Sequence record: MH791411.1
Direction: 5' to 3' (one strand)
Source: Escherichia phage Ecwhy_1
DNA length: 64,000 bases
Position numbers and translations under genes: made by a program. The notes beneath the pieces are model-generated. The model was not told the DNA's origin. It searched no databases and saw only the letters and a program-made list of their open reading frames with translations. Positions 2,678-42,136 of this stretch are shown here, piece after piece; the stretch's first letter is position 1; each line of letters starts with the position of its first letter.

Positions 2678-2869
2678 TTAAATTTTATTTCCGATATAGT
2701 CCGGCATGTTCTTTTCAGTCATACGCTTTGCTAATGTCTGCATATGGCTTATAGCGTTCAAGGTGTCTTCCTCCAGGGATGAATCGAGATAATCAGGATC
2801 ATTCTTCACCTTGCAATGATTATGATAGCGTAGTACTGCCAGTACTTTTTTAACTTCTTCTACTGTCAT
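2678..2869 (-). CDS. hypothetical small protein (63 aa)
   Basis: ORF; 4-nt overlap with upstream gene suggests coupling. Confidence 0.5.
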   Translation of the reverse strand: MTVEEVKKVLAVLRYHNHCKVKNDPDYLDSSLEEDTLNAISHMQTLAKRMTEKNMPDYIGNKI

Positions 2870-3138
2870 AATAAGTACCCCACTTCGTTAGCTTTCAGGT
2901 TAGTATCAATCATCAGTGGATTTTTGTAGTTCACAAAACGAGTAGTTTTCTCGATAGCGAATCCCATATAATCCAGCTTACTAACAGTACATTCATTCTT
3001 AAAAACTTCTTTCGCTGCATCGATGGCTGATTGCATGGATAACCGACCATCTAAATTAATGTTTCCAAATGATCCACCAGCAGAAGTAGGATTACCGTTC
3101 ATATCTTTAATGATCATAGTAGCGGAGTAGCTGGACAT
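2866..3138 (-). CDS. hypothetical protein (90 aa)
   Basis: ORF; SD AAAGGAAAC; TTGACA-N17-TATAAT + hairpin GGGGAGAACTATTCTCCCC upstream. Confidence 0.6.
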   Translation of the reverse strand: MSSYSATMIIKDMNGNPTSAGGSFGNINLDGRLSMQSAIDAAKEVFKNECTVSKLDYMGFAIEKTTRFVNYKNPLMIDTNLKANEVGYLL

Positions 3139-3163
3139 AATTTTGTTTCCTTTTATTGGTGTG

Positions 3164-3182
3164 GGGAGAACTATTCTCCCCT
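3164..3182 (-). promoter_or_regulatory. 5'UTR hairpin GGGGAGAA-CTA-TTCTCCCC (example of recurring G-rich leader hairpins)
   Basis: Perfect 8-bp inverted repeat between -10 and SD; no T-run after it on the transcribed strand. Confidence 0.55.
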
Positions 3183-7185: not shown

Positions 7186-7262
7186 TATCAGGGGAGTTTT
7201 TCGTATGTCTTACTCCTGGACTACTTAACGGGGTTACTTATTTCGTTCCCCGTCCTGATGTA
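7186..7262 (-). promoter_or_regulatory. conserved ~75-nt structured leader, copy 1
   Basis: Near-identical to 18400-18478, related to 14990-15060. Confidence 0.5.
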
Positions 7263-7432
7263 AAACATTATACTTGATTCTAAGTACAATGCAAGTACTT
7301 TTTTAAAAATAGTTTTCAGTACTAGCCACCAGCAAACAATAGATACATTTATGCACCCTGTGGGCTAATTTGTTTCTATGCGTATATAATAGCAAAGGGA
7401 CTGACCGGAGTCAATCCCTTTTTCAAATATTT

Positions 7433-7582
7433 TTAAACTTCTTTCGGGTTGCGATATGTGATAGCGTTCGGGTACATTTGTTTAATGTTATTCCATGCCT
7501 GGTTAACATTATAACCACTTGATCGAATCAGTTGGTTATTACCGACACCTTGAAACACTACTTCAAATAAGAATTCTTTCAT
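7433..7582 (-). CDS. hypothetical small protein (49 aa, not in ORF track)
   Basis: ATG overlaps stop of upstream gene (ATGA); SD GAGG. Confidence 0.35.
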   Translation of the reverse strand: MKEFLFEVVFQGVGNNQLIRSSGYNVNQAWNNIKQMYPNAITYRNPKEV

Positions 7583-17391: not shown

Positions 17392-17631
17392 TTACATTCC
17401 AACCATTGCAGCACGGATCGCAGTAGTGCTATACTTAAAGCCGTCCGGCGTTGTAGTAGTACCGTTGGCTTTTAATCTGCGGTACATACATTCCGCAGCA
17501 ATATCTTTAGTTCTACTTTGTGCGATGCAACTTTGAGCAAGCCGATACAATGACTCACCGTTATTAATCCAAAGGCTTACATTCCAATGAGTTTTGTTTT
17601 TGTGTCCGTTGTAAGTTTTAGTACTAGCCAT
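17392..17631 (-). CDS. hypothetical protein (79 aa), paralog of 19432-19671
   Basis: Trimmed to MASTKT start; shared motif GHKNKTHWNVSLWINN..PDGFKYSTTAIRAAMVGM. Confidence 0.6.
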   Translation of the reverse strand: MASTKTYNGHKNKTHWNVSLWINNGESLYRLAQSCIAQSRTKDIAAECMYRRLKANGTTTTPDGFKYSTTAIRAAMVGM

Positions 17632-19431: not shown

Positions 19432-19671
19432 TTACATTCCAACCATCGCCGCACGGATCGCAGTAGTGCTATATTTGAATCCGTCCGGTGTTTTATCTTG
19501 TCCAGTCTGTTCTAAAAATAACATCATATGACGGGCCGCATCATTGCGATTAGTGCTATCGTTAATAAAGTCCTGGGCCAACCGATACAATCCCTCATCG
19601 TTATTAATCCAAAGGCTTACATTCCAATGAGTTTTGTTTTTGTGACCTAAGAACATTTTTGATTTAGCCAT
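19432..19671 (-). CDS. hypothetical protein (79 aa), paralog of 17392-17631
   Basis: Trimmed to MAKSKMF start; promoter+hairpin. Confidence 0.6.
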   Translation of the reverse strand: MAKSKMFLGHKNKTHWNVSLWINNDEGLYRLAQDFINDSTNRNDAARHMMLFLEQTGQDKTPDGFKYSTTAIRAAMVGM

Positions 19672-19764
19672 TTTTTTAATCCTCTTATATAGTGGGGAAC
19701 TATTCCCCACCTGATGTAAAACATTATACGCCATTAAACATAGTTTGCAAGTACTTTATTAAAC

Positions 19765-20127
19765 TTATTTGTAAATTTTGCCACTGTCAGCCCATACCAG
19801 GAAACGAGGCATATTATCCCATGCATCTTGTTTTAAGTTTAAGCCGTGCAATTCCTCAGTTGTTGCCATCCCTGGTACTGGCTTACTACACACCGCGAAA
19901 TTTTCGCCCATATACTGATAAACCATCGTCAAATCATTTGAGATCATTATATGGATCATTGAATCCAGCATCAAAGTAGCGGCGTATTGTTCACGCTTAA
20001 GCGGCAACATTGCAATAAGTTCCCGATAAGCTGCAATGTGAATTTTTACAGTTTCAGCCGGAAGACCTTTCATCTCATCGCGGAAGTTTACCAGGTTAAG
20101 CATGATTTTATTGATTTGAGTCGCCAT
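19765..20127 (-). CDS. hypothetical protein (120 aa)
   Basis: Trimmed to MATQINK start; promoter+hairpin. Confidence 0.6.
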   Translation of the reverse strand: MATQINKIMLNLVNFRDEMKGLPAETVKIHIAAYRELIAMLPLKREQYAATLMLDSMIHIMISNDLTMVYQYMGENFAVCSKPVPGMATTEELHGLNLKQDAWDNMPRFLVWADSGKIYK

Positions 20128-20242
20128 CGTTTTAATCTCTCTTAATGTGTAGCGGGAAGTGTTCCCGCTCTCGATGTAAAACATTATACGCTTTTATCAG
20201 TACGGTGCAAGTACTTTCTACAAATACTTTTAAAATAGTTTT

Positions 20243-20329
20243 CTTTCTATATAGGAGTACTATTATTCAGTACTGCAATCATCCAGGGGAACTATCTTTC
20301 TATATAGGAGTACTATTATTCAGTACTGA
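20243..20329. repeat. 34-bp direct repeat, two copies
   Basis: TCTTTCTATATAGGAGTACTATTATTCAGTACTG at about 20243 and 20296. Confidence 0.6.
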
Positions 20330-20490
20330 ATCAATCCACTAAATCATCCCTATACCCCGTAAAACGTCCTCAGACGCATTCTAACGCATTAATACACATA
20401 AGCTATACATTTGCACCATTCCAATCATTCCAGGGCTTTACAGGCCGTTTAAACGCGTTAAATTATTTTCAATTATTTTGTTTTTAGGTA

Positions 20491-20600
20491 TTGACTTGAT
20501 CCTGAAAAAGCGTATAATTACTACATAGACGCGAGAAAGCGGATACCCCAGGGGGTGGGAAGATCCGTCCAAAATTCAAGATATAAAAAAAGGATACACT
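20491..20600 (+). ncRNA. candidate + strand transcript in the non-coding region
   Basis: TTGACT-N16-TATAAT; leader with CCCCAGGGGGTGGG and GATCCGTCC. Confidence 0.3.
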
Positions 20601-20706
20601 CCCGCACCCTAGCAGGTAAACGCACTTTCTCAGTACTGAAATATAGTACCATAGTCCGGCCCAGGATAGCAAGCAAATTAATTAAAACTTTTTTGCTTCC
20701 AGGGTA

Positions 20707-20800
20707 TTGCTTTATTTTTCCAGTACTGTATAATAGTTCCATCAAGTCGAGAAAGACTCAAGCCCACCGGGTGCATAGTTACGCCCAAAATTCAGTACTG
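20707..20800 (+). ncRNA. candidate + strand transcript in the non-coding region
   Basis: TTGCTT..TGTATAAT (extended -10); leader CCATCAAGTCGAGAAAGACTCAAGCCCACCGGGTGC. Confidence 0.3.
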
Positions 20801-20954
20801 AAAAAATTTTTAAAAATATCCGGCCAGGCCGTTGACATTGCCCCCAGTTTATAAGATAATGATTCCAGATTCAGAAAAATCTAACACCAGATACTGCGGG
20901 GAAACTATCCCCACGCGGTAGGGGAACTATTGGAAAAAACAAAATAAAATTTTG

Positions 20955-21145
20955 ATTTAGCCGTCTATACTTCCAGACGTGTAACCATCTAGCCGTTTAG
21001 CCGTCCAAACGTCTAGCCATCCAGCCATCCAGAAATCTAGCCGTTTAGCCGTCTAGATGGATAGCCATCTTTACTTCCAGACTTCTGGAGGGCTAGACAT
21101 ATCTACGCCCAAAATCCATCCAGGGTAACTACGCCCAAAATCCGT
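20955..21145. repeat. iteron-like cluster of short direct and inverted repeats
   Basis: About 10 copies of TAGCCGT/TAGCCAT in about 120 bp; CTACGCCCAAAATCC twice; palindromes CCAGA..TCTGG, GATGG..CCATC. Confidence 0.5.
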
Positions 21146-22166
21146 CAGTACTATACCATAGATCTATCTTTTGAAAGGGAGTATTCAGTACTGCCATCAT
21201 AGCCCTCACTATGTTACCCTAGGAGGATGAAGACCATCATGTAGTACTGAATACTGTTAGAGGGAATCCACCAGCTTGTGCTGGTGGCATAATGCTTTAG
21301 ATTAAAATCAGTACTGACACCATTCTGTTAATATCAGTACTGTTATTACGATTTTCATATGAGGTTCAAAAAGATGTACCACCACAGGAGGAACTATCTT
21401 TTCTGTACTGTCTCACGACAGGAGGTAGAGTAAATGAATTGTTCGCAGCAACTCATCACCCTATGTAGAACATTATACAGTACTGAATCATAAAGTCAAT
21501 AACTTTCTTTCATCTTTCAGTACTGATATTCTTGAGAACTACCCGACTACAAACATCATTATATCCCACAAATCATAAACGTCCCAACGTAAATTTCAAC
21601 TTTCGAAGATCCAACTTTTATTTCATAGGTACTCCAAAATTTTTAGGATCGAGATTTAGGATGGAGTACTAACCAACTTTTTGCTGGAGCCTCAAGGGGT
21701 AATGGAATTTTACCCCGAAGGGTAAAGGGGTAATTGAAATTAAGGTGAAAGTAATAATTCAGTACTAATCATTGCGTGATTACTTTTGATTACATTTGAT
21801 GTAATTTGCAAAATGGAAAAGGAGCTTGGAAACTACAAAGTACGGCAGACTTCCTCTGCCTACTTAGTGGGATATCGCCACCTTCAGTACTGAATACTTT
21901 TAGGGCAGTACTGAATCCTTCCCTAGCATTCTTGAGTAATCTTGTCTATAATAATCAGTACTGAATCATATATAATCATTCTGTGATTCTACGGTGCTCA
22001 TATAAATGTTTATATATGATTACTTATGACTACATATGATTACGGGGTTTAGCCTGGGGAGAATCCTAGTGATCGCATTTGTCCAGGCTGAATTTTAACA
22101 ATTCTTCTAATTGTTAAAGCCTGTCCAATGCTTTCCCTGCGGAGCTTCCCCTGTCTATATGTTGAA

Positions 22167-22373
22167 TTACTTCCTATATATAAGCATTAACATATAGTAG
22201 TACTGATTATGCTGTACATTCTCTTTAATATTATAAGGGTCTATAGCAATCTCGGTACATCTGTTAAATGCATATCTATTAAATGCCAGTACTATTATAG
22301 ATCTAATCCATGCTTGGTCAGTCGGTGGTAGTTTACTTATATAGTACTCTTTATAGTTTTTTATGTTCTGCAT
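22167..22373 (-). CDS. small paralog family member (68 aa)
   Basis: Tandem family; N-terminal (K/E)EYY motif, hydrophobic C-terminus. Confidence 0.55.
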   Translation of the reverse strand: MQNIKNYKEYYISKLPPTDQAWIRSIIVLAFNRYAFNRCTEIAIDPYNIKENVQHNQYYYMLMLIYRK

Positions 22374-22384
22374 AGTATACCTTA

Positions 22385-22576
22385 TTATTTCAAAGTACCA
22401 TATAGTACTCTTAATAGGAAGTAGTACGTATTAGAGATATCATTAGTAGTTAAAACAATCTTTGTACACATATTAAATTCGTATTGAGTCATTGCCAGGG
22501 GGATTAAATTGTTAACCCATGCTTGTTCGTTTTCTTTTAGTTTACTTATATAGAAATCTTTATGTTCTTTATTCAT
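22385..22576 (-). CDS. small paralog family member (63 aa)
   Basis: Tandem family; MNKEHKDFY start. Confidence 0.55.
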   Translation of the reverse strand: MNKEHKDFYISKLKENEQAWVNNLIPLAMTQYEFNMCTKIVLTTNDISNTYYFLLRVLYGTLK

Positions 22577-22778
22577 ATAGGAATAGTATACCTATGATGC
22601 CGGAGTACATATTAGTACTGTTATTATTGTCGTTTGCGTTTAAAGTCATTTGAATACAATTATTGTAGCATACTCTGCCGAAATAAGTATCAGTACTTAA
22701 AGGTGCTGTAGTCCTTAGAAACATTTGTTCTGTGGGGCTGAGGTGTTTGGAGTAGAATTCTTTATGTTCTTTATTCAT
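22569..22778 (-). CDS. small paralog family member (69 aa)
   Basis: Tandem family; near-duplicate of 23152-23358. Confidence 0.55.
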   Translation of the reverse strand: MNKEHKEFYSKHLSPTEQMFLRTTAPLSTDTYFGRVCYNNCIQMTLNANDNNNSTNMYSGIIGILFLYE

Positions 22779-22783
22779 ATTAG

Positions 22784-22969
22784 TTAGTGTCTGTATATAA
22801 GTAATAGTAAGAATACGTACTGCACCTGTTCATCTTTAGTATTGAGTACTGTACGTATTGCGTCATGGAACAAGAATATAGTACTTGGGTCATTAGAATT
22901 TAAGGGGTTTACGGGGACGGCGTGTTTGTAGTTCCCTTTAACAAATTGTGTGTAGTATTCTCTATGCAT
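22784..22969 (-). CDS. small paralog family member (61 aa)
   Basis: Tandem family; MHREYYTQF start. Confidence 0.55.
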   Translation of the reverse strand: MHREYYTQFVKGNYKHAVPVNPLNSNDPSTIFLFHDAIRTVLNTKDEQVQYVFLLLLIYRH

Positions 22970-22970
22970 A

Positions 22971-23159
22971 TCAGTACCTATATATTAGGGCGAGAATGTA
23001 GTACAGTTTATATGTATTATAATCTGGGTTGATAGCACATAGTGTGTGGTAGTGGAATTGTTTGGTATTTTTCTTATCCTTGATATCTATTGGGTTTAGT
23101 GGTATAAGCATTTGGGAGTTTAGTTCCAGATGGTTTAAGTAGAATTCTTTGTTATTCAT
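22971..23159 (-). CDS. small paralog family member (62 aa)
   Basis: Tandem family; C-terminus LALIYRY. Confidence 0.55.
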   Translation of the reverse strand: MNNKEFYLNHLELNSQMLIPLNPIDIKDKKNTKQFHYHTLCAINPDYNTYKLYYILALIYRY

Positions 23160-23358
23160 AGAAGAATATTAGTCCCATTACGCCTGAGTACTGAATATTT
23201 TTGTTATTGTTTTCTAAAGCTTCTAGAGTAATACGTATACAATTATTAAAGCAATCTCTGGCGTGTGGTGTATCTAAACTTAAAGGTGATACACTCCTTA
23301 GAAACATTTGTTCTGATGCACTGAGGTGTTTGGTGTAAAATTCTTTCTGTTCGTTCAT
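23152..23358 (-). CDS. small paralog family member (68 aa)
   Basis: Tandem family. Confidence 0.55.
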   Translation of the reverse strand: MNEQKEFYTKHLSASEQMFLRSVSPLSLDTPHARDCFNNCIRITLEALENNNKNIQYSGVMGLIFFYE

Positions 23359-23368
23359 ATTGGCCTCT

Positions 23369-23557
23369 TTAGTACACGAAAGCTAGGTACAGGGTATGAT
23401 ACAGTACTCGATGATAGCTATCAAAATCTAGTATACATGCTTTAGTGCACATAGTAAAGTACACTTTATCGTTTTGAGCATTGATACCGCGAGGTTTATC
23501 TAATAGATTAGTACTGAGGTACATTGGGAAATATTTTGTGTAGTATTCTTTATGCAT
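23369..23557 (-). CDS. small paralog family member (62 aa)
   Basis: Trimmed to MHKEYY start. Confidence 0.5.
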   Translation of the reverse strand: MHKEYYTKYFPMYLSTNLLDKPRGINAQNDKVYFTMCTKACILDFDSYHRVLYHTLYLAFVY

Positions 23558-23558
23558 A

Positions 23559-23747
23559 TTAGTACCTGAATATAAGTAGGATAGTGTTATATAATTGGTC
23601 ATAGCTACTACTATTTTCTATACTGCGTTCTATGCAATTATTGAATCCCAGTACTGCCAAATCGTTATCCAGGGGGACTTTATATCTGGCGTAGTGTTCA
23701 AAAATACTGGGGAGAAATTGTGTGTAGTATTCTTTGTGGTTGTTCAT
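23559..23747 (-). CDS. small paralog family member (62 aa)
   Basis: Tandem family; MNNHKEYY start. Confidence 0.55.
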   Translation of the reverse strand: MNNHKEYYTQFLPSIFEHYARYKVPLDNDLAVLGFNNCIERSIENSSSYDQLYNTILLIFRY

Positions 23748-23748
23748 A

Positions 23749-23940
23749 TTAGTACTTATATATTAGTAAAAGGATGTGATACAGTACTCTATTATAGTCC
23801 TCAATATCTATCGAGGATTTAGTGCACTTAATGAAATAGTCTTTTTCGTAGTCTTTTTCTATACTCAATTGTTTTGTTGGTACAAGGTGTTGGAGATACA
23901 TTGGGAGTTTCTCTATGTAGTATTCTTTGTGGTTATTCAT
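23749..23940 (-). CDS. small paralog family member (63 aa)
   Basis: Tandem family; MNNHKEYY start. Confidence 0.55.
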   Translation of the reverse strand: MNNHKEYYIEKLPMYLQHLVPTKQLSIEKDYEKDYFIKCTKSSIDIEDYNRVLYHILLLIYKY

Positions 23941-23948
23941 ATTATGTG

Positions 23949-24122
23949 TTATTTCGTGAAAACAAGGGTTAGTACTGCATAGTACAAGTCATACGTATCT
24001 TTAGGGTTAATAGCACCTTTAATACATTCTTTCATTACTTCATTATAGATAATTTTAGTACTGAATGTATTGGATGTTACTATATCGGAATTAAGGTACG
24101 AGAGGTAGAATTCTTTATACAT
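23949..24122 (-). CDS. small paralog family member (57 aa)
   Basis: Trimmed to MYKEFY start. Confidence 0.5.
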   Translation of the reverse strand: MYKEFYLSYLNSDIVTSNTFSTKIIYNEVMKECIKGAINPKDTYDLYYAVLTLVFTK

Positions 24123-24774
24123 AGTTTGTAATATACGTAATGAGGTGATGAAATTTCTTATCAGTACTGATAAGTTCCTGTACATGTTTTGTTAGTTTGT
24201 ACGCGTTTTTATAGAGTCCTGGATTATCGATTACAGTACTGTACATGAATTCTTCTTCCTCGGATAATTCTTTGTGTTCTAGTTCTTTGAGGAATTGCAG
24301 TACTGTATCAGTTTCGTTAGTACGTTGCTTTTGGAAGAAGTGCATGTTATCGTGTATTTTTTCTGAACCCATGCAGTACATATCGCCGATTTGGAATTGT
24401 GCAGTACTGATATCATGGGTGCTATTACAATTCCCGAAGAAGTATACATTCCCGAAAGATAGAATTATAGTGCACGGGATATTATCCATGTGTATATAGA
24501 TAGATGCATTCTTTAGTGCTTTTGTGCTGGTATTAGTACTCAATACTTTTAAATCAGTATTATAGATATTAATAAAAGCAAGAGCTATATTATTTTTCTT
24601 CAAGTACGATTTGAGGTTCTTAGATACGAGAACATTTCTGGATTTTTTCTTTTTATTTCGTTTCTTTAGTACATTTGGGTCGTAAGTATATACTGGTGTA
24701 AAAGATTCTGCTTGAATACTGTTGAGGTATTTAAAGTGCTTAAGGTATTGTTTACTGTGTGCATTAAGTTTCAT
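24115..24774 (-). CDS. hypothetical protein (219 aa) embedded in the small-paralog array
   Basis: ORF; Lys-rich central region; no family motif. Confidence 0.55.
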   Translation of the reverse strand: MKLNAHSKQYLKHFKYLNSIQAESFTPVYTYDPNVLKKRNKKKKSRNVLVSKNLKSYLKKNNIALAFINIYNTDLKVLSTNTSTKALKNASIYIHMDNIPCTIILSFGNVYFFGNCNSTHDISTAQFQIGDMYCMGSEKIHDNMHFFQKQRTNETDTVLQFLKELEHKELSEEEEFMYSTVIDNPGLYKNAYKLTKHVQELISTDKKFHHLITYITNYV

Positions 24775-24785
24775 TTGGTTTTCCT

Positions 24786-24965
24786 TTATACAGATGCGAG
24801 AGCGAGGATTTCCCTGAAGGGATTATCTTTTGTTAGTGCGTGATGAATGCAGCTATTGAGATTAATATTTTTAGTACTGTTAGTTGCCAGGTTGTAGTAC
24901 TTCACGAAGGTGTCGTACATGAAACGGTCTTTAATGCTTATGTGTTCTATATAGTATTCTTGCAT
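24786..24965 (-). CDS. small paralog family member (59 aa, not in track)
   Basis: MQEYYIEH start; SD AAGGAATAAT. Confidence 0.45.
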   Translation of the reverse strand: MQEYYIEHISIKDRFMYDTFVKYYNLATNSTKNINLNSCIHHALTKDNPFREILALASV

Positions 24966-24973
24966 ATTATTCC

Positions 24974-25162
24974 TTACATAGAGATGAGTTTCAGTACATC
25001 AATATACATATAACGTTCAGATGACATTACACGGGTAGTGATAATCTCAATCGATATATTTTTAATTCCATGTGCAGATGATTGATGGTGCTGAATAAAT
25101 GAGTTGTGCATACTTTGTTCTATGTGGTTTAGTTTATTGAAGTAGTACTCAAAAGTGTTCAT
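24974..25162 (-). CDS. small paralog family member (62 aa)
   Basis: MNTFEYY start; C-terminus VLKLISM. Confidence 0.55.
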   Translation of the reverse strand: MNTFEYYFNKLNHIEQSMHNSFIQHHQSSAHGIKNISIEIITTRVMSSERYMYIDVLKLISM

Positions 25163-25169
25163 GTCTACC

Positions 25170-25349
25170 TTAGATTGAGATTAGTTTAAGTACTTCTCTG
25201 TACGTGTACTTTTCGTTTTGTGCTTCTACTGTACATGATAGTAGGTATCGTTTTTTATCTCTTTTGTTCCCGACTGTGTAGTACCTTTGGAATTTATTAT
25301 AGTTGTATCTATCTTTGTGCTGGAGGTTATAGATATAGAATTCTTGCAT
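25170..25349 (-). CDS. small paralog family member (59 aa, not in track)
   Basis: MQEFYIYN start; C-terminus REVLKLISI. Confidence 0.45.
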   Translation of the reverse strand: MQEFYIYNLQHKDRYNYNKFQRYYTVGNKRDKKRYLLSCTVEAQNEKYTYREVLKLISI

Positions 25350-25357
25350 AGAGTACC

Positions 25358-25543
25358 TTATATTGCTATCAGTTTGAGTACTTCAATATATGTGCGGTAC
25401 TCTGCTTTAATTAAATTTGTACACACTGTAAGGGAATTTCTTTGTATAAGTTTATTGCCGCTTTTATACGCATTTCTCCACACATAGAGATGAGATCTTT
25501 CAGGCATAGATAGTTTATTTGTATAGTACTCAAATGTATTCAT
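25358..25543 (-). CDS. small paralog family member (61 aa)
   Basis: MNTFEYY start. Confidence 0.55.
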   Translation of the reverse strand: MNTFEYYTNKLSMPERSHLYVWRNAYKSGNKLIQRNSLTVCTNLIKAEYRTYIEVLKLIAI

Positions 25544-25551
25544 ATATTACC

Positions 25552-25755
25552 TCAAATAGAGATTAGTTTAAGTACTTCTCTGTATGTGTACTTTTCGTTT
25601 TGTGCATCTCTTGTGCTTGTATATAGGTATCCTCGACGATATTTGTTGCTCCCGTTCTTGTAGTTGAATTCGAACTTATTGTAGATGAATCTATCGCCAG
25701 GCTGTAATTTACTTAAGTACAATTCAATGCTCATAGTATTCTCTTTACATATCAA
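25552..25755 (-). CDS. small paralog family member (67 aa; start may be internal MSIELY)
   Basis: C-terminus REVLKLISI. Confidence 0.5.
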   Translation of the reverse strand: MICKENTMSIELYLSKLQPGDRFIYNKFEFNYKNGSNKYRRGYLYTSTRDAQNEKYTYREVLKLISI

Positions 25756-25930
25756 TAAGTTTCAGTACTGCTCTGTACGTGTACTTAGTTGTTAGTGCTT
25801 CTTTTATAGCAATACAGAAGTAATGTTGTTTGTCTCTTATACTACCGCGTTTGTAGTACCATACATTGGAGTTGTGGGTGTACTTGTCCCTGTCGGATAG
25901 ATTTAGGTAATAGTATAATATATGATTCAT
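25745..25930 (-). CDS. small paralog family member (61 aa)
   Basis: C-terminus RAVLKLIDM. Confidence 0.55.
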   Translation of the reverse strand: MNHILYYYLNLSDRDKYTHNSNVWYYKRGSIRDKQHYFCIAIKEALTTKYTYRAVLKLIDM

Positions 25931-26139
25931 GGTAATGTAATTAGCCTTATTATGTTAAAGTACTCGGTCCCTGGTACACCTTGTAGAATATTATCAACTA
26001 CATTTTCTTGGTGCAGGATTAATACATTCGGTGCGGTTCTTTTAAGGTTTTTTAAAGTACTGTATTCTTGTTTAAGGATGAACTGTACATCTTTAGGGAG
26101 AATATCTAAGTAGTACTGGTGTATGTTCATAGTTTTCAT
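25927..26139 (-). CDS. small paralog family member (70 aa)
   Basis: MKTMNIHQYY start. Confidence 0.55.
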   Translation of the reverse strand: MKTMNIHQYYLDILPKDVQFILKQEYSTLKNLKRTAPNVLILHQENVVDNILQGVPGTEYFNIIRLITLP

Positions 26140-26150
26140 ATAGTACTCTT

Positions 26151-26336
26151 TTAGAACTTAAAGATGAGGTTCATGATAGATAAGTACTTAGTTTCAGGAA
26201 ATTGATGTTCTATTGCATAACGTGTCTCCAGTCTGAAGTCAAATTTATAAAAGGGACTATTCATATCCATAGGTTCATTGGGAAATGAATCTCTGTATTG
26301 TTTGTGCAGCTTACTACAGTAGAATTCTTTATACAT
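26151..26336 (-). CDS. small paralog family member (61 aa)
   Basis: MYKEFY start. Confidence 0.55.
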   Translation of the reverse strand: MYKEFYCSKLHKQYRDSFPNEPMDMNSPFYKFDFRLETRYAIEHQFPETKYLSIMNLIFKF

Positions 26337-26337
26337 A

Positions 26338-36652: not shown

Positions 36653-37840
36653 ATGTTACCTTTTGCAAGAATGGTTAAGTACGGGAATAAAGTCATTCCA
36701 TATGTTCCCAATTTTACTAAATTAGTCACCCCAGCAGTTGGTTATTCATTTACATGCACAATGCTGCTTGATGTAAATGGATCAGTGTGGGCTATGGGTC
36801 TTCAGAATGCAGGAATTTTTGGGTTAGGTAATACTACACAGGTTACTGAATGGACAAAAATATATAACAATGTTAAAGATTTTTGGTGCAGCACGGGGAA
36901 TGGTTTTTGTCTAATACGAACAAATGATGATAGATTCTTTTATAGTGGTTTAGATAAATGGCTAGGTAACAATACAACAAATACTGTAACAACATTCACT
37001 GAATGTACGAGTTATTTTACACAATTTGGTATTTCAAAAATCAAAGAAATATATGTAGGTCTTGATTATGCTTTGATTTTAGGTACTGATAATAGTTTAT
37101 ATTTGTTAGGTGATAATAAAAATTCAAAGTTTGGTTTAAACACTGCATCATATTTTAATAAATTTACATTTTTAGTCGATAATGTTAAAAAATTCTGTTC
37201 ATCCATCACACCATCTAACTGGATTATTAAACTAGATAATACAATATGGCGTACTGGGACAACATCTCATGGAACGTTGGGAAATGGAGTTCAAAACACA
37301 TATATATTTCCTTGGGTTCAATATAAGGGCACACCTGTTACCGAAGCTATAGACGTTTTTTGTAGTGCGAGTTATATTGGTATTATAACTAAAGGTACAC
37401 CAGAATCATGTCCTATGTATACACTAGGCTATCAAGCTGATGGTCAGTTGGGTAATAATACTACAGCAGGGGGTTATAAATTAACGCCAACATTATCGAA
37501 AACCGTTCCAGATGATAGTGAATTCATTCGAATTGAAAACATCTCATCCCGTGGTCTGGTATATTATAGCTCTGGTAAAATTTATAGTACTGGTTATAAT
37601 AACAATGGTCAGTTGGCAAATAATACTAAAATCAATTCTGGTTCATTTGTTGAAGCAATTTTACCTAATGGTGTTAACTTTAAGAAAAGTGAATCACTTG
37701 TAGCTGGGAACGATGCAACGTTGTATATGTACATTAATAATAAATTATACTACGCGGGGAAATCTCCTGATAATATTTCAGCAAGTAGTTCGTCTGTCAT
37801 GAAAGAATTCCCACTTCCAACAATTAATGCCAGTACTTGA
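36653..37840 (+). CDS. RCC1-like repeat protein, paralog 9 (395 aa)
   Basis: MLPFARMVKYGN; SD AAAGGAGG. Confidence 0.75.
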   Translation: MLPFARMVKYGNKVIPYVPNFTKLVTPAVGYSFTCTMLLDVNGSVWAMGLQNAGIFGLGNTTQVTEWTKIYNNVKDFWCSTGNGFCLIRTNDDRFFYSGLDKWLGNNTTNTVTTFTECTSYFTQFGISKIKEIYVGLDYALILGTDNSLYLLGDNKNSKFGLNTASYFNKFTFLVDNVKKFCSSITPSNWIIKLDNTIWRTGTTSHGTLGNGVQNTYIFPWVQYKGTPVTEAIDVFCSASYIGIITKGTPESCPMYTLGYQADGQLGNNTTAGGYKLTPTLSKTVPDDSEFIRIENISSRGLVYYSSGKIYSTGYNNNGQLANNTKINSGSFVEAILPNGVNFKKSESLVAGNDATLYMYINNKLYYAGKSPDNISASSSSVMKEFPLPTINAST

Positions 37841-37892
37841 TACTGGCTTTTCTTTTTGTATTAAATATAGTATAATGAATAAAGGAGGGAAT

Positions 37893-39044
37893 ATGTTACC
37901 TTTTGCAAGAATGGTTAAGTACGGGAATATTGCACCAGTTCCTGTAGTTCCTACAATAAAAGATTTTAAGATTGGATTTTCACATGAAGTGTTATTGGAC
38001 AGTGCAGGTGATGTATGGGGTATTGGATACAATACAGATGGACAGTTGGGATTTCTGGATGCTAACACAAATTCAATAGGAATGTGGTCTAAGATACATG
38101 AGAATGTTAGATTAATTGGCGTTACTGCCAATTATACTGTAGTTGTTACAAATGATAATAGAATACTTTACGCCGGAAATAACTTAATTTCTAGTACTAC
38201 AACGCTTGGGTGGAACGATATAACGTCCAGTATGGGAGAGGTTGCAGTGGATAGTATAGATACATTATATTGCACAGATGGAATGATGCATATTAAAACT
38301 GCTGATGGCTCTTTATATGCATATGGACGTAATATGAACGCGAACGCTGGAGTTACAGGCGTTTCTGGCGTTATTAGTGTTGCAACTAAAGTTAGTGGTT
38401 TACCATCGGCAGTGAAGGATATACGATATACGTTTAGTTATGGTTCAGTACTATGCCAATTTGATACCACTTCGGTATATGGATGGGGAAGAAATGTCAA
38501 TGGTGAATTAGGTCAGGGGAATGCAGCCGCAGTTCCTGCCCCATACCTATTGGCGGGAGCTTCTATTGTTATAGGTACTTCTTATAATGCTACTGCCATT
38601 GTTTCTGGTACTGGAACGTTAGTTACATGTGGTGGACAAAATAATGGTCAGTTAGGTAATGGTATTACTACTGCTGGTAATGTATACATATATGGTGCTA
38701 GGTCATACCCTGGCGATCTTAATAATATAAGAAGTCCAGTAGATTGTAGTACAACTTATACTTCCGCATTTATGAGTACAGATGGTATATATTACACGGG
38801 TTCGAACCGAAGTGTTTTTGGTGGTGCGAGTGGTTCTGCTACTGTTGCATTATATACTAAATGTAGTGATTTGCCAATATTATATTCCAATATAACTCAG
38901 TGGGGTAGTGGTACTATTGGTGGGGCGATATGTAGCAGAACTGAATTATATCAGTGTGGTACAGGTAGATACATTGCCGGAGATGGACAGAACGCAACTA
39001 GGTATGGGTTTAGAAAGACACCATTACCTTGGGATGTTTATTGA
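37893..39044 (+). CDS. RCC1-like repeat protein, paralog 10 (383 aa)
   Basis: MLPFARMVKYGN; SD AAAGGAGGG. Confidence 0.75.
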   Translation: MLPFARMVKYGNIAPVPVVPTIKDFKIGFSHEVLLDSAGDVWGIGYNTDGQLGFLDANTNSIGMWSKIHENVRLIGVTANYTVVVTNDNRILYAGNNLISSTTTLGWNDITSSMGEVAVDSIDTLYCTDGMMHIKTADGSLYAYGRNMNANAGVTGVSGVISVATKVSGLPSAVKDIRYTFSYGSVLCQFDTTSVYGWGRNVNGELGQGNAAAVPAPYLLAGASIVIGTSYNATAIVSGTGTLVTCGGQNNGQLGNGITTAGNVYIYGARSYPGDLNNIRSPVDCSTTYTSAFMSTDGIYYTGSNRSVFGGASGSATVALYTKCSDLPILYSNITQWGSGTIGGAICSRTELYQCGTGRYIAGDGQNATRYGFRKTPLPWDVY

Positions 39045-39114
39045 AATAATGCCAGTACTCTGTACTGGCTTTTCTTTTTGATTAAATATAGTATAAAGAA
39101 TAAAGGAGGGAATT

Positions 39115-40251
39115 ATGTTACCTTTTGCAAGAATGGTTAAGTACGGGAATATAAAAGTAAAGAGTACTATACAAAAAGTTATACTTGGTGGTGGTGGTCA
39201 ATGTGTGGTAACATTACTCAGTGATGGTAGAGTGTATGGACGTGGTTACAACACTACACATGGGTTAGGTACTGGTACAACAACATTCGTAAGTGATTGG
39301 GTATTAATGGGAGATAATATTGTTGATATCCATTCAAATGGTGTTACTGGAACATTCCTTATTACCAAAGAAAATAGAATATTGTATTCTGGTTTTGCGA
39401 CACCAATCAATGGCACAACATCACATTATACACGTTTCACTGATTTAACATCAACTGTATTTGCTGCGGTGGATGTTAGTAATATTAAAACAATTACGGG
39501 AAATGGTAATGTTACAATGGTTCTTTTGAATGATGGTTCACTTTATGGGAGTGGTGCAAATATAGGGGTTATAGGTAATGGTAGTAACGTTGCATTATCA
39601 ACACAAACATATGTGACTAATGATGTGCGTGATGTGAAAACATATCCATCAATGAACACTATAACAAAAAATAATAATCAAATATTGGCTAGTGGTATTT
39701 TATACCAAGGCGTGAACGGTACAAATTCATCAATAAACACGTCTTCATATACATTACTGTACACATTACCGAGTTCTGATTGTTTTCAATTTGCATTTGA
39801 TACATATACATTTGGATATGTTGACCCTAGTACTAACACTTCTTATATAAGAGGTATACCAATAAATGGTTCATTAGGTAATGGCGTTACTAATAATACA
39901 GCAGTTACAACATGGGTTACTAAAGTTTGGAATACACCAATTGATAGTTCTATACCTAATAAATCATATACAACTAACCATGTCTCCTTGTTCAATGATG
40001 GAAACTTATGGACAACTGGTGCATCTAGTGTAGGTTATTCCAATGGTACAAATAGCACAACAGCTAATACATGGACCAGTTCATCTAATTTACCATTCAA
40101 CACTAATAACATAACAGACTATGCTTTTGGTGGTAGTATTACTGTAGTGGTAATCGACTACAGGACTATGTACATACTAGCTAACAACGCCATTGCTGGT
40201 ACTGCTACGACAACTTATAAATTTGAGCCATATAATTCTCCACCAGTTTAA
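39115..40251 (+). CDS. RCC1-like repeat protein, paralog 11 (378 aa)
   Basis: MLPFARMVKYGN; SD AAAGGAGGG; -10 variant TATAAAG. Confidence 0.75.
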   Translation: MLPFARMVKYGNIKVKSTIQKVILGGGGQCVVTLLSDGRVYGRGYNTTHGLGTGTTTFVSDWVLMGDNIVDIHSNGVTGTFLITKENRILYSGFATPINGTTSHYTRFTDLTSTVFAAVDVSNIKTITGNGNVTMVLLNDGSLYGSGANIGVIGNGSNVALSTQTYVTNDVRDVKTYPSMNTITKNNNQILASGILYQGVNGTNSSINTSSYTLLYTLPSSDCFQFAFDTYTFGYVDPSTNTSYIRGIPINGSLGNGVTNNTAVTTWVTKVWNTPIDSSIPNKSYTTNHVSLFNDGNLWTTGASSVGYSNGTNSTTANTWTSSSNLPFNTNNITDYAFGGSITVVVIDYRTMYILANNAIAGTATTTYKFEPYNSPPV

Positions 40252-40283
40252 TATAATGCCAGTACTATGTACTGGCTTTTCTT

Positions 40284-40934
40284 TTACATATTATATAATG
40301 TGAATGCAGTCACTTTACCAGTTGTTGTTAGTTCATTATAAAGATACTCCAAGATTCTCGCACACTCTAAGTATATCTCGATATCATCATGAATAAGTGA
40401 GTACTGAAATAGCTGTTCTTCAGGTAATTTGTATTGACTTCCTTTTAATGAATTGAGAATATCTTTCACATCATCAAGTACTGGGTAAAGTACGAAATCT
40501 TCATCATATTTTGAAGCAATAAATTCAAATCCACCACCATCAGTACTAGATATACCAATCAGTACTTTATCAATCAAGTTAATGTTTATATAACGGTTGT
40601 GATTTGGGTGAATTGAAATCTCAAACATAAGAGTACTGTTACAATCAACATCAATATACAAATATACATCATTGAATTTATAAGTTAAGCAACCGTACTC
40701 AAGAAAATCAGAGCAAATAATTGATGAGTTTTTTCTCGTCTCTGCGTAATGCATCTTGATATTCTTTTCACGCATAAGTAATTCGAACTTTGCACTAAAC
40801 TTGCCACCAGCAAGATAGTTAGTATTAGGACGTTTGTAACTTGCAACTGGTCGGTGGGATGATGTAAAGTATTTTTTTGTGAATCGTTTATGTTTAGTGA
40901 AATATTCTTGATAGAACTTACTTCTTTTATTCAT
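40284..40934 (-). CDS. hypothetical protein (216 aa), opposite strand inside the RCC1-like array
   Basis: ORF; convergent with paralog 11 and sharing its terminator hairpin. Confidence 0.6.
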   Translation of the reverse strand: MNKRSKFYQEYFTKHKRFTKKYFTSSHRPVASYKRPNTNYLAGGKFSAKFELLMREKNIKMHYAETRKNSSIICSDFLEYGCLTYKFNDVYLYIDVDCNSTLMFEISIHPNHNRYININLIDKVLIGISSTDGGGFEFIASKYDEDFVLYPVLDDVKDILNSLKGSQYKLPEEQLFQYSLIHDDIEIYLECARILEYLYNELTTTGKVTAFTLYNM

Positions 40935-41011
40935 GAGTACCTCAATTAAATCGCTGTAAAATTGTACATTATAAAATGATTAAATAAAGTATAACACAAG
41001 GAGATTTTATC

Positions 41012-42136
41012 ATGTTACCTTTCGTATTGTTATTTGATTATGGGAACGAAAAACAAGAAAGTTCTTATGATGTTAGTGTATATGGAAACAATAACTACAT
41101 TTTAAATAAACAAACTGGAAACCTTTTTGCATCCGGTGCTGCGGCATTCATGGGTGATAACACAGTTAAGTATTATATTACCCAAATAGAATCAAATGTT
41201 CATAGCTGTGAGATAGGTTTCCTATCATCATGGATAATTAAGAAGGACAAAACTGTTTTCATTTTAGGAAACAAAAGCAGTATAGGATTAACTGGTTCGA
41301 CAACATCATGGTTCGAAATTACAAATTTATTTTCTGCTGTTCCTGAAATATGGGACAACCTATTTGAATGTAAAGTTCAATTGGGATATAACTGTATACG
41401 TGTTATGACACCACTAGGATCAATCTATGCGATTGGTACAAACACTTATGGTGCATTGGGTACTGGTACTACATCCTCATCAACTTCGTTCGTTAAAAGT
41501 GGTGCTGTGGATGCTGTACGCATGGAATCAACAGAACGTTCAGTGTTCTATCAAAACAGTTCTGGACAATGGTTTGGATGTGGTGATAACACATATGGTA
41601 TACTAGGTCTAGGAACTACCGCGAGTCGTGTAAACTCATACACCGCACCAGTATGGACTAATGCAGAAGCTGTTAGCTTCTCTAACCGTGGGATCATATA
41701 CAGCCTCAATGGTACTCTATACTCATGTGGTGACAAAGTTAATGGTCAGCTAGGGGATGGATATACACAAAGCATAGACGCTGCCAGGAGCACACCATAC
41801 ACCATAGGAACCGCATTCCAAATTGGTAAGGCAATAACATCAGCTACACAAGCATCAGCCAACGTATTCATTGGTAAAGATAATAAGTTCTATGGTACTG
41901 GTAGTATTGCTGCTGGTATAAATGGTAGTGCTAGTGCTGCATTAAGTAAAGTTACTGCGTTATCAGCATCACTACCACCTGACATTACATACAATGATAT
42001 TATAACATTTAATACAGGGACCGTAACTTTTATTCAAGCAAAAGGACAACTATATTATGTTGGTAGAAGAACTTACATAGATAATAGTTCAGACGTTACC
42101 ACACAGTTCAGTGTAATTGGTGGCTTAGATAATTAA
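41012..42136 (+). CDS. RCC1-like repeat protein, divergent paralog 12 (374 aa)
   Basis: MLPFVLLFDYGN; blocks GTNTYGALGTG, GDNTYGILGLG, VNGQLGDGY; SD AAGGAG. Confidence 0.7.
   Translation: MLPFVLLFDYGNEKQESSYDVSVYGNNNYILNKQTGNLFASGAAAFMGDNTVKYYITQIESNVHSCEIGFLSSWIIKKDKTVFILGNKSSIGLTGSTTSWFEITNLFSAVPEIWDNLFECKVQLGYNCIRVMTPLGSIYAIGTNTYGALGTGTTSSSTSFVKSGAVDAVRMESTERSVFYQNSSGQWFGCGDNTYGILGLGTTASRVNSYTAPVWTNAEAVSFSNRGIIYSLNGTLYSCGDKVNGQLGDGYTQSIDAARSTPYTIGTAFQIGKAITSATQASANVFIGKDNKFYGTGSIAAGINGSASAALSKVTALSASLPPDITYNDIITFNTGTVTFIQAKGQLYYVGRRTYIDNSSDVTTQFSVIGGLDN

Follow-up and report, generated by a model that had tools for sequence, protein, structure and literature searches.

A tandem array in the terminal repeat of a jumbo coliphage resembles an expanded operator for the host repressor MetJ

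Escherichia phage Ecwhy_1 (MH791411.1) carries a dense cluster of short direct repeats in a long stretch of DNA devoid of open reading frames, which raises the question of what protein, encoded by the phage or by its host, such a cluster would bind. The cluster was analysed within a window of 64,000 nucleotides, by which we mean the whole stretch of DNA under study. An initial annotation, made from the sequence alone, had described about ten copies of TAGCCGT or TAGCCAT in about 120 bp (within positions 20955–21145) as an array for an initiator or regulator, and had named phage early proteins as the ligands to be assayed. The units were therefore re-examined with respect to register, composition, genomic position and occurrence in other phages.

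Register of the repeat units and fit to the MetJ site

The clustering itself was confirmed, with seven exact plus-strand copies of TAGCCRT in 111 bp (at 20958, 20990, 20998, 21014, 21038, 21046 and 21062) in place of the roughly ten originally counted. The heptamer is not the repeat unit. Tandem Repeats Finder returned a period of 8 with 12.4 copies and zero indels, and a repeat search of the array gave successive spacings of 8 bp. The array is extended beyond the exact heptamers by CAGCCAT at 21022 and by several degenerate units. All of the strings quoted in the initial annotation are present in the sequence, including two copies of TAGCCGTTTAGCCGTC (20990 and 21038) and CTAGCCATCCAGCCATCCAG, which starts at 21013. 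The heptamer search that it had proposed, run over the 64-kb window, placed five of the eight occurrences of TAGCCGT (both strands) in the array. TAGCCAT occurs 16 times on the plus strand outside the array, and at least eight of these are the reverse complement of ATGGCTA (Met-Ala) starts of minus-strand ORFs and hence unrelated to it.

A shift of one base relative to the units as first described turns the array into tandem met boxes (AGCCGTCT, AGACGTGT, AAACGTCT, AGCCATCT and others). Laid out in this register and scored with a MetJ matrix, 18 consecutive 8-bp met-box-like units occupy positions 20959–21102 on the plus strand. Units 1–9 are, in order, AGCCGTCT, ATACTTCC, AGACGTGT, AACCATCT, AGCCGTTT, AGCCGTCC, AAACGTCT, AGCCATCC and AGCCATCC, and units 10–18 are AGAAATCT, AGCCGTTT, AGCCGTCT, AGATGGAT, AGCCATCT, TTACTTCC, AGACTTCT, GGAGGGCT and AGACATAT. 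Compared with the met-box consensus AGACGTCT, the 18 boxes give 105 matches in 144 positions, where the maximum elsewhere in the window is 60 and the maximum of 200 shuffles is 63. The repetition is far above chance.

MetJ binds two or more abutting 8-bp boxes of this consensus (PMC4239095; PMC3413123). Natural MetJ operators contain two to five boxes, each bound cooperatively by one ribbon-helix-helix dimer, with S-adenosylmethionine (SAM) as the co-repressor. Scoring followed the weight matrix and site rule of Augustus and Spicer (PMC3228920, Table 3), under which a box has at least one-quarter of the consensus score (3.15 bits) and a site has at least the consensus score (12.58 bits). A core of 14 adjacent boxes (20959–21070), each over the single-box threshold, scored 102.8 bits and is the sole site in the 64-kb window that satisfies the published rule. 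The full set of 18 boxes totals 120.4 bits, with 16 of the 18 over 3.15 bits, against a background in which window 8-mers have a mean of −12 bits and the best other run of 18 boxes has −93 bits. The same scoring code recovered all six E. coli operators tested at 15–31 bits and two to four boxes, namely metJ/metB (4 boxes, 31.2 bits), metA (4 boxes, 27.1 bits), metF (4 boxes, 24.9 bits), metR/metE (3 boxes, 21.1 bits), metC (2 boxes, 18.9 bits) and metK (3 boxes, 15.0 bits). The mean of 6.7 bits per box is that of the real operators, the modal base of the 18 window boxes is that of the consensus at every position, and the mean number of consensus matches per box is 5.8 of 8 compared with 5.3–6.0 in real operators.

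Boxes pooled from 11 phages (162 in total) agree with the consensus in their modal base at 8 of 8 positions, and their second-choice bases (G1, C8, C3/G6 and T4/A5) are those that MetJ tolerates. Symmetrised half-box frequencies of the 162 phage boxes, when compared with 832 natural half-metboxes, gave r=0.963. Position 3 is almost evenly divided, with A at 0.51 and C at 0.49 in the phage boxes versus about 10% C in natural half-boxes. The bias is polar: C3 is found 79 times and the symmetric G6 only 17 times in the 162 boxes (p=2e-14), a departure from two-fold symmetry that a two-fold symmetric MetJ dimer does not predict. It might stem from shared ancestry or duplication of units, or from a second ligand or constraint. 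The bias toward AGCC also sets the polarity of the array, which runs toward the genome terminus.

The array and the E. coli met operators therefore share the 8-bp unit, the abutting tandem layout, the consensus, about 6.7 bits per box and the tolerated substitutions. They differ in that the phage array has 14–18 boxes (up to 28–29 in Aeromonas phage AhSzq-1) rather than two to five, is situated in terminal-repeat phage DNA away from promoters and met genes, and has the polar excess of C at position 3. Natural operators overlap promoters, whereas no overlap was found between the array and the promoter-like sites that were sought. Nor does the array precede a methionine or SAM gene, its nearest genes encoding small uncharacterised proteins. 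The host does carry MetJ, as metJ is present in the E. coli genome NC_000913. A blastn search with the array in 5,426 complete E. coli genomes gave no match, so the array has no recent origin from a host operator.

Tandem 8-mers of a loosely similar sequence are a different matter. When bacterial genomes were scanned for four strict boxes, at least 120 loci came up, most of them perfect minisatellites rich in GC from phyla that lack MetJ, and some of them arranged as hairpins. MetJ-less bacteria commonly contain tandem 8-mers that follow the loose pattern AGMCRTCY, and in viral contigs each of two units permuted as controls matched the real one in frequency. Perfect 8-bp minisatellites of any unit are thus common and the loose pattern is not diagnostic; neither the pattern nor its taxonomic spread was retained as informative. 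The phage arrays stand out in that their units are degenerate and conform to the matrix, in that they persist from genus to genus, and in their hosts. As a separate observation, a Gemmatimonadales and an Anaerolineae metagenome-assembled genome contain multi-copy intergenic hairpins whose arms are tandem 8-mers, of the form (GGACGGCT)n–loop–(AGCCGTCC)n or with GGATGGCT and AGCCATCC, at seven or more loci per genome and often at contig ends. These look like a REP-like family of 8-bp units unrelated to MetJ.

The terminal repeat and the elements around the array

The window derives from an Asteriusvirus jumbo coliphage of the PBECO4/121Q/G17 group and is 90–99.9% identical to 41 records. Positions 1–21864 are direct terminal repeat, the window beginning about 89 bp inside it (position 1 is base 90 of the left-repeat records), and the physical terminus or repeat boundary is at 21864|21865. 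The six independent records of CRJP21, fEgEco12, BF17, ELP-22, E9.1 and vB_Ec-M-J start exactly at 21864 in reverse complement, and the annotation of vB_Ec-M-J gives a direct terminal repeat of 21,525 bp at this boundary. The fEgEco12 repeat was determined as 20,993 bp by PhageTerm and confirmed by restriction digests (PMC13070987), and coordinate arithmetic gives the same length. The boundary at 21864 means that the window comprises nearly the whole terminal repeat together with 42 kb of unique sequence. The array is 763–906 bp from the physical end and, since it is within the direct terminal repeat, is present in two copies per genome.

The stretch without ORFs extends from 20185 to about 22166 and spans the boundary, with about 1.7 kb of it ending the repeat of about 21 kb, and the genes that flank it are on the minus strand on both sides. 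Three sigma-70-like promoters on the plus strand (20491, 20707 and 20832) are directed toward the genome end, each followed by a short, conserved and apparently structured transcript. The element after the 20491 promoter (AGACGCGAGAAAGCGGATACCCCAGGGGGTGGG...) is kept in Serratia phage BF, in XbC2 and even in XaC1. The third site, TTGACA-17-GATAAT at 20832–20860, is aimed at the array and its −10 element precedes the first box by 97–98 nt; BF, XbC2, GAP32, CBB and Yen9-04 have a promoter-like site at the same spacing, and the arrangement is seen in six genera in all. An analogous leftward host promoter, A0, lies within the terminal repeat of T3. Between the 20832 site and the array lies a structured leader of two hairpins (20866–20926, plus strand), the second of which (20886–20926) shows compensatory changes across genera. 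Of 19 predicted pairs in the leader hairpin, eight show pair-preserving change on both sides among six sequences. The conserved leader sequence, used as a query against IMG/VR, matched 121Q alone.

The array is bordered upstream by an A/T-rich tract, GGAAAAAACAAAATAAAATTTTGATTT (20932–20958), that abuts the first box. Immediately downstream are the duplicated flank reported in the initial annotation, two plus-strand copies of CTACGCCCAAAATCC (at 21103 and 21129, together 21103–21143). The third related copy that it placed near 20781 is also there, as TTACGCCCAAAATTC at 20779, so that YTACGCCCAAAATYC occurs three times (20779–20793, 21103–21117 and 21129–21143). A related sequence, ACACCCAAAATTCAG, follows the array in BF, GAP32 and CBB; strings similar to CCCCAAAATC were also seen near the T5 repeat boundary and in phage Pontus. 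Further downstream, a strong sigma-70-like promoter on the minus strand (TTGACT-16-TATAAT, 11 of 12 consensus bases, 21472–21499) is directed leftward to the array and is convergent with the 20832 promoter. The nominally non-coding stretch also includes a 19-codon plus-strand ORF, MNCSQQLITLCRTLYSTES (21435–21494), with a strong Shine-Dalgarno sequence, ACAGGAGGTAGAGTAAATG, upstream.

Some 580 bp short of the terminus, at 21268–21287, two inverted Chi sites form a hairpin, CCACCAGCttgtGCTGGTGG. The E. coli Chi sequence GCTGGTGG is found 15 times in the window compared with an expectation of 0.67, and nine of the 11 sites in the terminal repeat are on the minus strand, the orientation for RecBCD entering from the left end. 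Chi sites were also noted in the terminal regions of Providencia phage PR1 and XbC2. The palindrome CAGTACTG is even more abundant, with 68 copies in the window where 0.9 would be expected. The copies are most concentrated in the first 35 kb and several fall between ORFs; many are in the ORF-free stretch, for example at 20631, 20721, 20793, 21186, 21309, 21335, 21478, 21518, 21885, 21906 and 21956. AGTACT motifs fill the terminal regions of BF, XbC2, GAP32, CBB and XaC1, and the palindrome is probably a phage promoter or regulatory motif that is not specific to the terminus. The terminal bases (21845–21864, GACTTCctctgcctact|) contain GACTTC 12–13 nt from the end, in common with BF, XbC2 and CBB (GACTTCaggaRMRGATA|), which suggests a terminase cut-site context conserved across genera.

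A tRNA scan of the window detected none, an Rfam search of 20000–22300 (E≤1) gave no relevant family and two chance matches to eukaryotic families, and no DnaA boxes (TTWTNCACA) were found at 20–22 kb. Just inside the unique region, two runs of ORFs look like large tandem paralogue families. The first (22167–26774, minus strand) has about 19 consecutive ORFs, nearly all of about 60–77 residues and several visibly similar, and the second (26881–42136) has twelve plus-strand ORFs of 357–405 residues interrupted by one on the minus strand (40284–40934). The single ORF of the second run that was scanned has an RCC1-like domain.

Arrays in other phages

Arrays within Asteriusvirus have 13–25 boxes and differ by whole 8-bp boxes. 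Compared with the window array, G17 has two boxes fewer, fEgEco12 one more and SHEFM2K six fewer, and the 25 boxes of EJP2 are largely rewritten box by box with the register and MetJ scores kept. Both the whole-box differences and the rewritten boxes that still score point to selection on in-register units rather than on a particular sequence.

Comparable arrays of 8–29 boxes occur in Rak2-like jumbo phages, in some T5-like phages and in T7-like phages of the genus Ermolevavirus. The Rak2-like carriers, which include Eneladusvirus and Mimasvirus, are Serratia phage BF, the Erwinia pEa_SNUABM phages, Yersinia phage fHe-Yen9-04, Cronobacter phage GAP32, Pectobacterium phage CBB and XbC2. The array is 650–920 bp from the terminus in the jumbo phages as a whole and 650–850 bp in the other Rak2-like phages, as measured on records that start at the terminus. 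The T5-like carriers infect Vibrio, Aeromonas and Providencia and have the array in the region equivalent to that of the T5 injection stop signal (iss). Providencia phage PR1 has nine boxes (88.5 bits) that lie 770 bp into its left terminal repeat of 10,461 bp, and the arrays of PR1 and Pontus adjoin paired DnaA boxes at the position of the T5 iss. The T7-like phages PGT2 and phiKT have nine boxes at bp 38–109 of a terminal repeat of exactly 260 bp, at both ends of the genome. T5 and T3 infect E. coli and neither has such an array.

These lineages are not fully independent. The DUF7249 gene of the window (19432–19734, minus strand; paralogue at 17392–17631, minus strand) is 74% identical to PGT2 gp03 (PGT2 2123–2362), which indicates that unrelated coliphage families have recently exchanged genes of the early region. 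Terminal location is not universal either, as shown by a metagenomic siphovirus-like contig in which eight boxes lie directly 3′ of the major capsid gene. A further 17-kb IMG/VR contig (3300031658_004036) has, at 7257–7544, 36 near-perfect AGATGTCY units that score 356 bits with the MetJ matrix.

For the named carriers, the host comes from a MetJ-bearing order in every case but one (PMC4239095). The exception is XbC2, which is reported on Xanthomonas vesicatoria, a member of a genus without MetJ. XbC2 has a GC content of 37.5% compared with about 65% for its reported host, and the phage closest to it, at 90% amino acid identity, infects Erwinia. XaC1, a more distant member of the clade that infects Xanthomonas, has a comparable non-coding stretch of 1.5 kb at its terminus, in which the promoter and leader element recur, but no MetJ site was found in its first 5 kb.

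Candidate ligands and proposed role

We propose that the array is a super-operator of 14–18 tandem met boxes for host MetJ, an assignment to which we give slightly better than even confidence. The element would be best described as a MetJ operator that has been expanded to a phage-borne super-array. The regulator half of the original reading is borne out by the exact 8-bp register, the gain and loss of whole units and the fit to a regulator's matrix, and the best candidate ligand is this host repressor rather than a phage early protein. Given the unit-for-unit match to the MetJ site, the phage probably recruits or soaks up a host sensor. The publications consulted on these phages do not mention the repeats, and full-text literature searches combining MetJ or met boxes with phage terms returned nothing relevant.

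A ligand of phage origin was sought in the gene content of the carriers. A tblastn search for MetJ homologues in 50,697 phage records recovered only host contamination. Pfam searches of the 127 window ORFs found no ribbon-helix-helix (including ParF/ParG-type), MetJ, ParA/ParB, Rep/initiator, packaging-recognition or SAM-lyase family and none of the A1/A2 families of T5, bearing in mind that small ribbon-helix-helix domains can escape detection, and the same searches of 67 early ORFs from the T5-like phages and PGT2 were negative for the ribbon-helix-helix, MetJ, Par, Rep and packaging-recognition families and, apart from PGT2 gp05, for SAM lyases. The majority of the proteins searched could be placed in no family, and a novel binder may be among them. 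Such a binder is at the heart of the alternative that survives best, in which the array is a platform for a phage-encoded protein (an unrecognised ribbon-helix-helix protein, a small terminase subunit or an end-binding protein) that marks the repeat for cutting, packaging, concatemer processing or partition, its likeness to met boxes being coincidence or mimicry. The array is in or next to the terminal repeat in all three lineages with a consistent unit polarity toward the conventional left end, the polar C3 bias is left unexplained by MetJ, most genes of the repeat lack a recognised family and the XbC2 publication reports no small terminase subunit. Centromeres such as parH that are bound by ribbon-helix-helix proteins also use arrays with an 8-bp period (PMC3413123). 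However, no protein is common to the three lineages in the loci examined, DUF7249 being found in PGT2 and the window and not convincingly in the T5-like phages, and the families that such a role would call upon were not detected in the window. Moreover, the array of the siphovirus-like contig follows a capsid gene rather than lying at an end, and chance would have to account for how well the units follow the MetJ matrix, even in their second-choice bases (r=0.963). We consider this alternative unlikely.

Less probable still, in our estimation, is a role like that of the T5 injection stop, in which host proteins on the untranslated end of the repeat would stop DNA entry, set its pace or protect the entering end, with MetJ in the part proposed for DnaA in T5. 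The genome architecture is indeed T5-like, with a long repeat of small genes that ends in an untranslated, repeat-rich stretch of 1.2–1.7 kb across the boundary, the arrays of PR1 and Pontus are beside paired DnaA boxes at the iss position, and Chi is enriched and suitably oriented near both ends. The T5 iss likewise is a large untranslated repeat-rich region with boxes for host proteins at the inner end of an early-gene terminal repeat, but it has paired DnaA boxes (IRD′-spacer-IRC′) and other repeats with no met-box array, and in the jumbo phage the reverse is true, T5 itself being without an array and the jumbo-phage region without DnaA boxes. Two-step entry is also unreported in the publications on Rak2-like phages that were consulted, and the DnaA model for T5 is itself a proposal (bioRxiv 10.1101/866236).

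The promoter and leader upstream of the array raise the prospect of an element that acts in transcription or as RNA, with transcription driven into the repeats so that, for example, Rho could load there, the RNA could serve as a protein sponge, or an R-loop could prime replication as at T4 origins. The promoter-like site at a conserved 97–98 nt in six genera, the covariation of the leader hairpin between promoter and array and the A/T-rich tract abutting the first box are in keeping with this reading. We regard it as improbable, as no promoter occupies the corresponding position in PGT2 or the T5-like phages, the region matches no Rfam family, the repeats carry few known RNA-binding motifs and their conservation follows a matrix for a two-fold DNA site rather than a strand-specific RNA motif.

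Origin iterons are typically about 17–22 bp, in most cases show helical phasing, and have DnaA boxes and the gene for an initiator next to them. The iteron reading, which corresponds to the initiator half of the initial annotation, is very improbable and the least supported of the alternatives, for although the array shares with origin iterons clustered direct repeats in non-coding DNA beside an A/T-rich tract (protein binding being predicted for the array), it has an abutting 8-bp unit, no DnaA boxes in the region, no Rep or initiator family among 127 ORFs and a copy at both genome ends, and T5 replication origins map to the genome centre and not to the terminal repeat.

Under the MetJ super-operator hypothesis, holo-MetJ would coat the array as a cooperative filament over 112–144 bp. 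The heptad arrays of omega repressors are comparable, consisting of short boxes in fixed register that are coated cooperatively by ribbon-helix-helix dimers. At parH of plasmid TP228, many short degenerate boxes spaced 8 bp centre to centre are coated in the same way by ParG dimers (PMC3413123). By analogy the phage array probably works physically like these coating arrays, from which it differs in that its box is that of MetJ and not ACTC or the omega heptad.

Several roles may be considered for such a filament, including a decoy, a SAM-gated roadblock or part of an end or injection complex. As a decoy, the array would be a high-avidity sink that, during the entry and replication of phage DNA, draws MetJ off the met operators of the chromosome. 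Replication would multiply the sink and lead to de-repressed synthesis of methionine and SAM. In the jumbo phages it could also impose a block, dependent on SAM, between the promoters at 20832 (plus strand) and 21499 (minus strand), which are convergent. The decoy is favoured because the arrays exceed the length of any regulatory operator three- to sevenfold, vary in length and have no constant relation to promoters across lineages, and because two copies per genome amount to 28–36 boxes compared with 20 in the six classical operators scanned. A precedent for sequestration is datA, a host site cluster that titrates the host's own initiator DnaA and does not control an adjacent promoter. The proposed titration would differ in that a virus titrates a metabolic repressor of its host. 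More tentatively, and with less confidence than we attach to MetJ as the ligand of the window array, we suggest that three phage families carry oversized MetJ-operator arrays in their terminal repeats, whether acquired independently or exchanged, and that these act in cis without a phage gene product as a MetJ sponge or a SAM-gated block on the genome ends.

If MetJ does coat these arrays, one short non-coding element would tie infection to the methionine and SAM status of the host. It would represent a previously undescribed viral tap on a host metabolic sensor and would supply a concrete host ligand for the untranslated ends of phages with long terminal repeats, including the injection-stop region of the T5-like relatives. 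Phage engineering would also gain a useful design principle in a decoy of this type for a host transcription factor.

DNA methylation, restriction-modification and several defence systems draw on SAM, which phages of the T3 type attack enzymatically. One of the array carriers probably does the same, as gp05 of PGT2 (2683–3177; phiKT 39756–40250) matches the S-adenosylmethionine lyase family PF23780 with E=7.5e-24 and is, judged by this match, a probable T3-type SAM lyase. A tblastn search with this protein found PGT2 and phiKT only, and T3 has a SAM lyase and no array; with the enzyme confined to these two carriers, the link between arrays and SAM lyase does not generalise. Current annotations describe gp05 as a "SAM-dependent methyltransferase" in PGT2 and as a "tail tape measure protein" in the GenBank record of phiKT.
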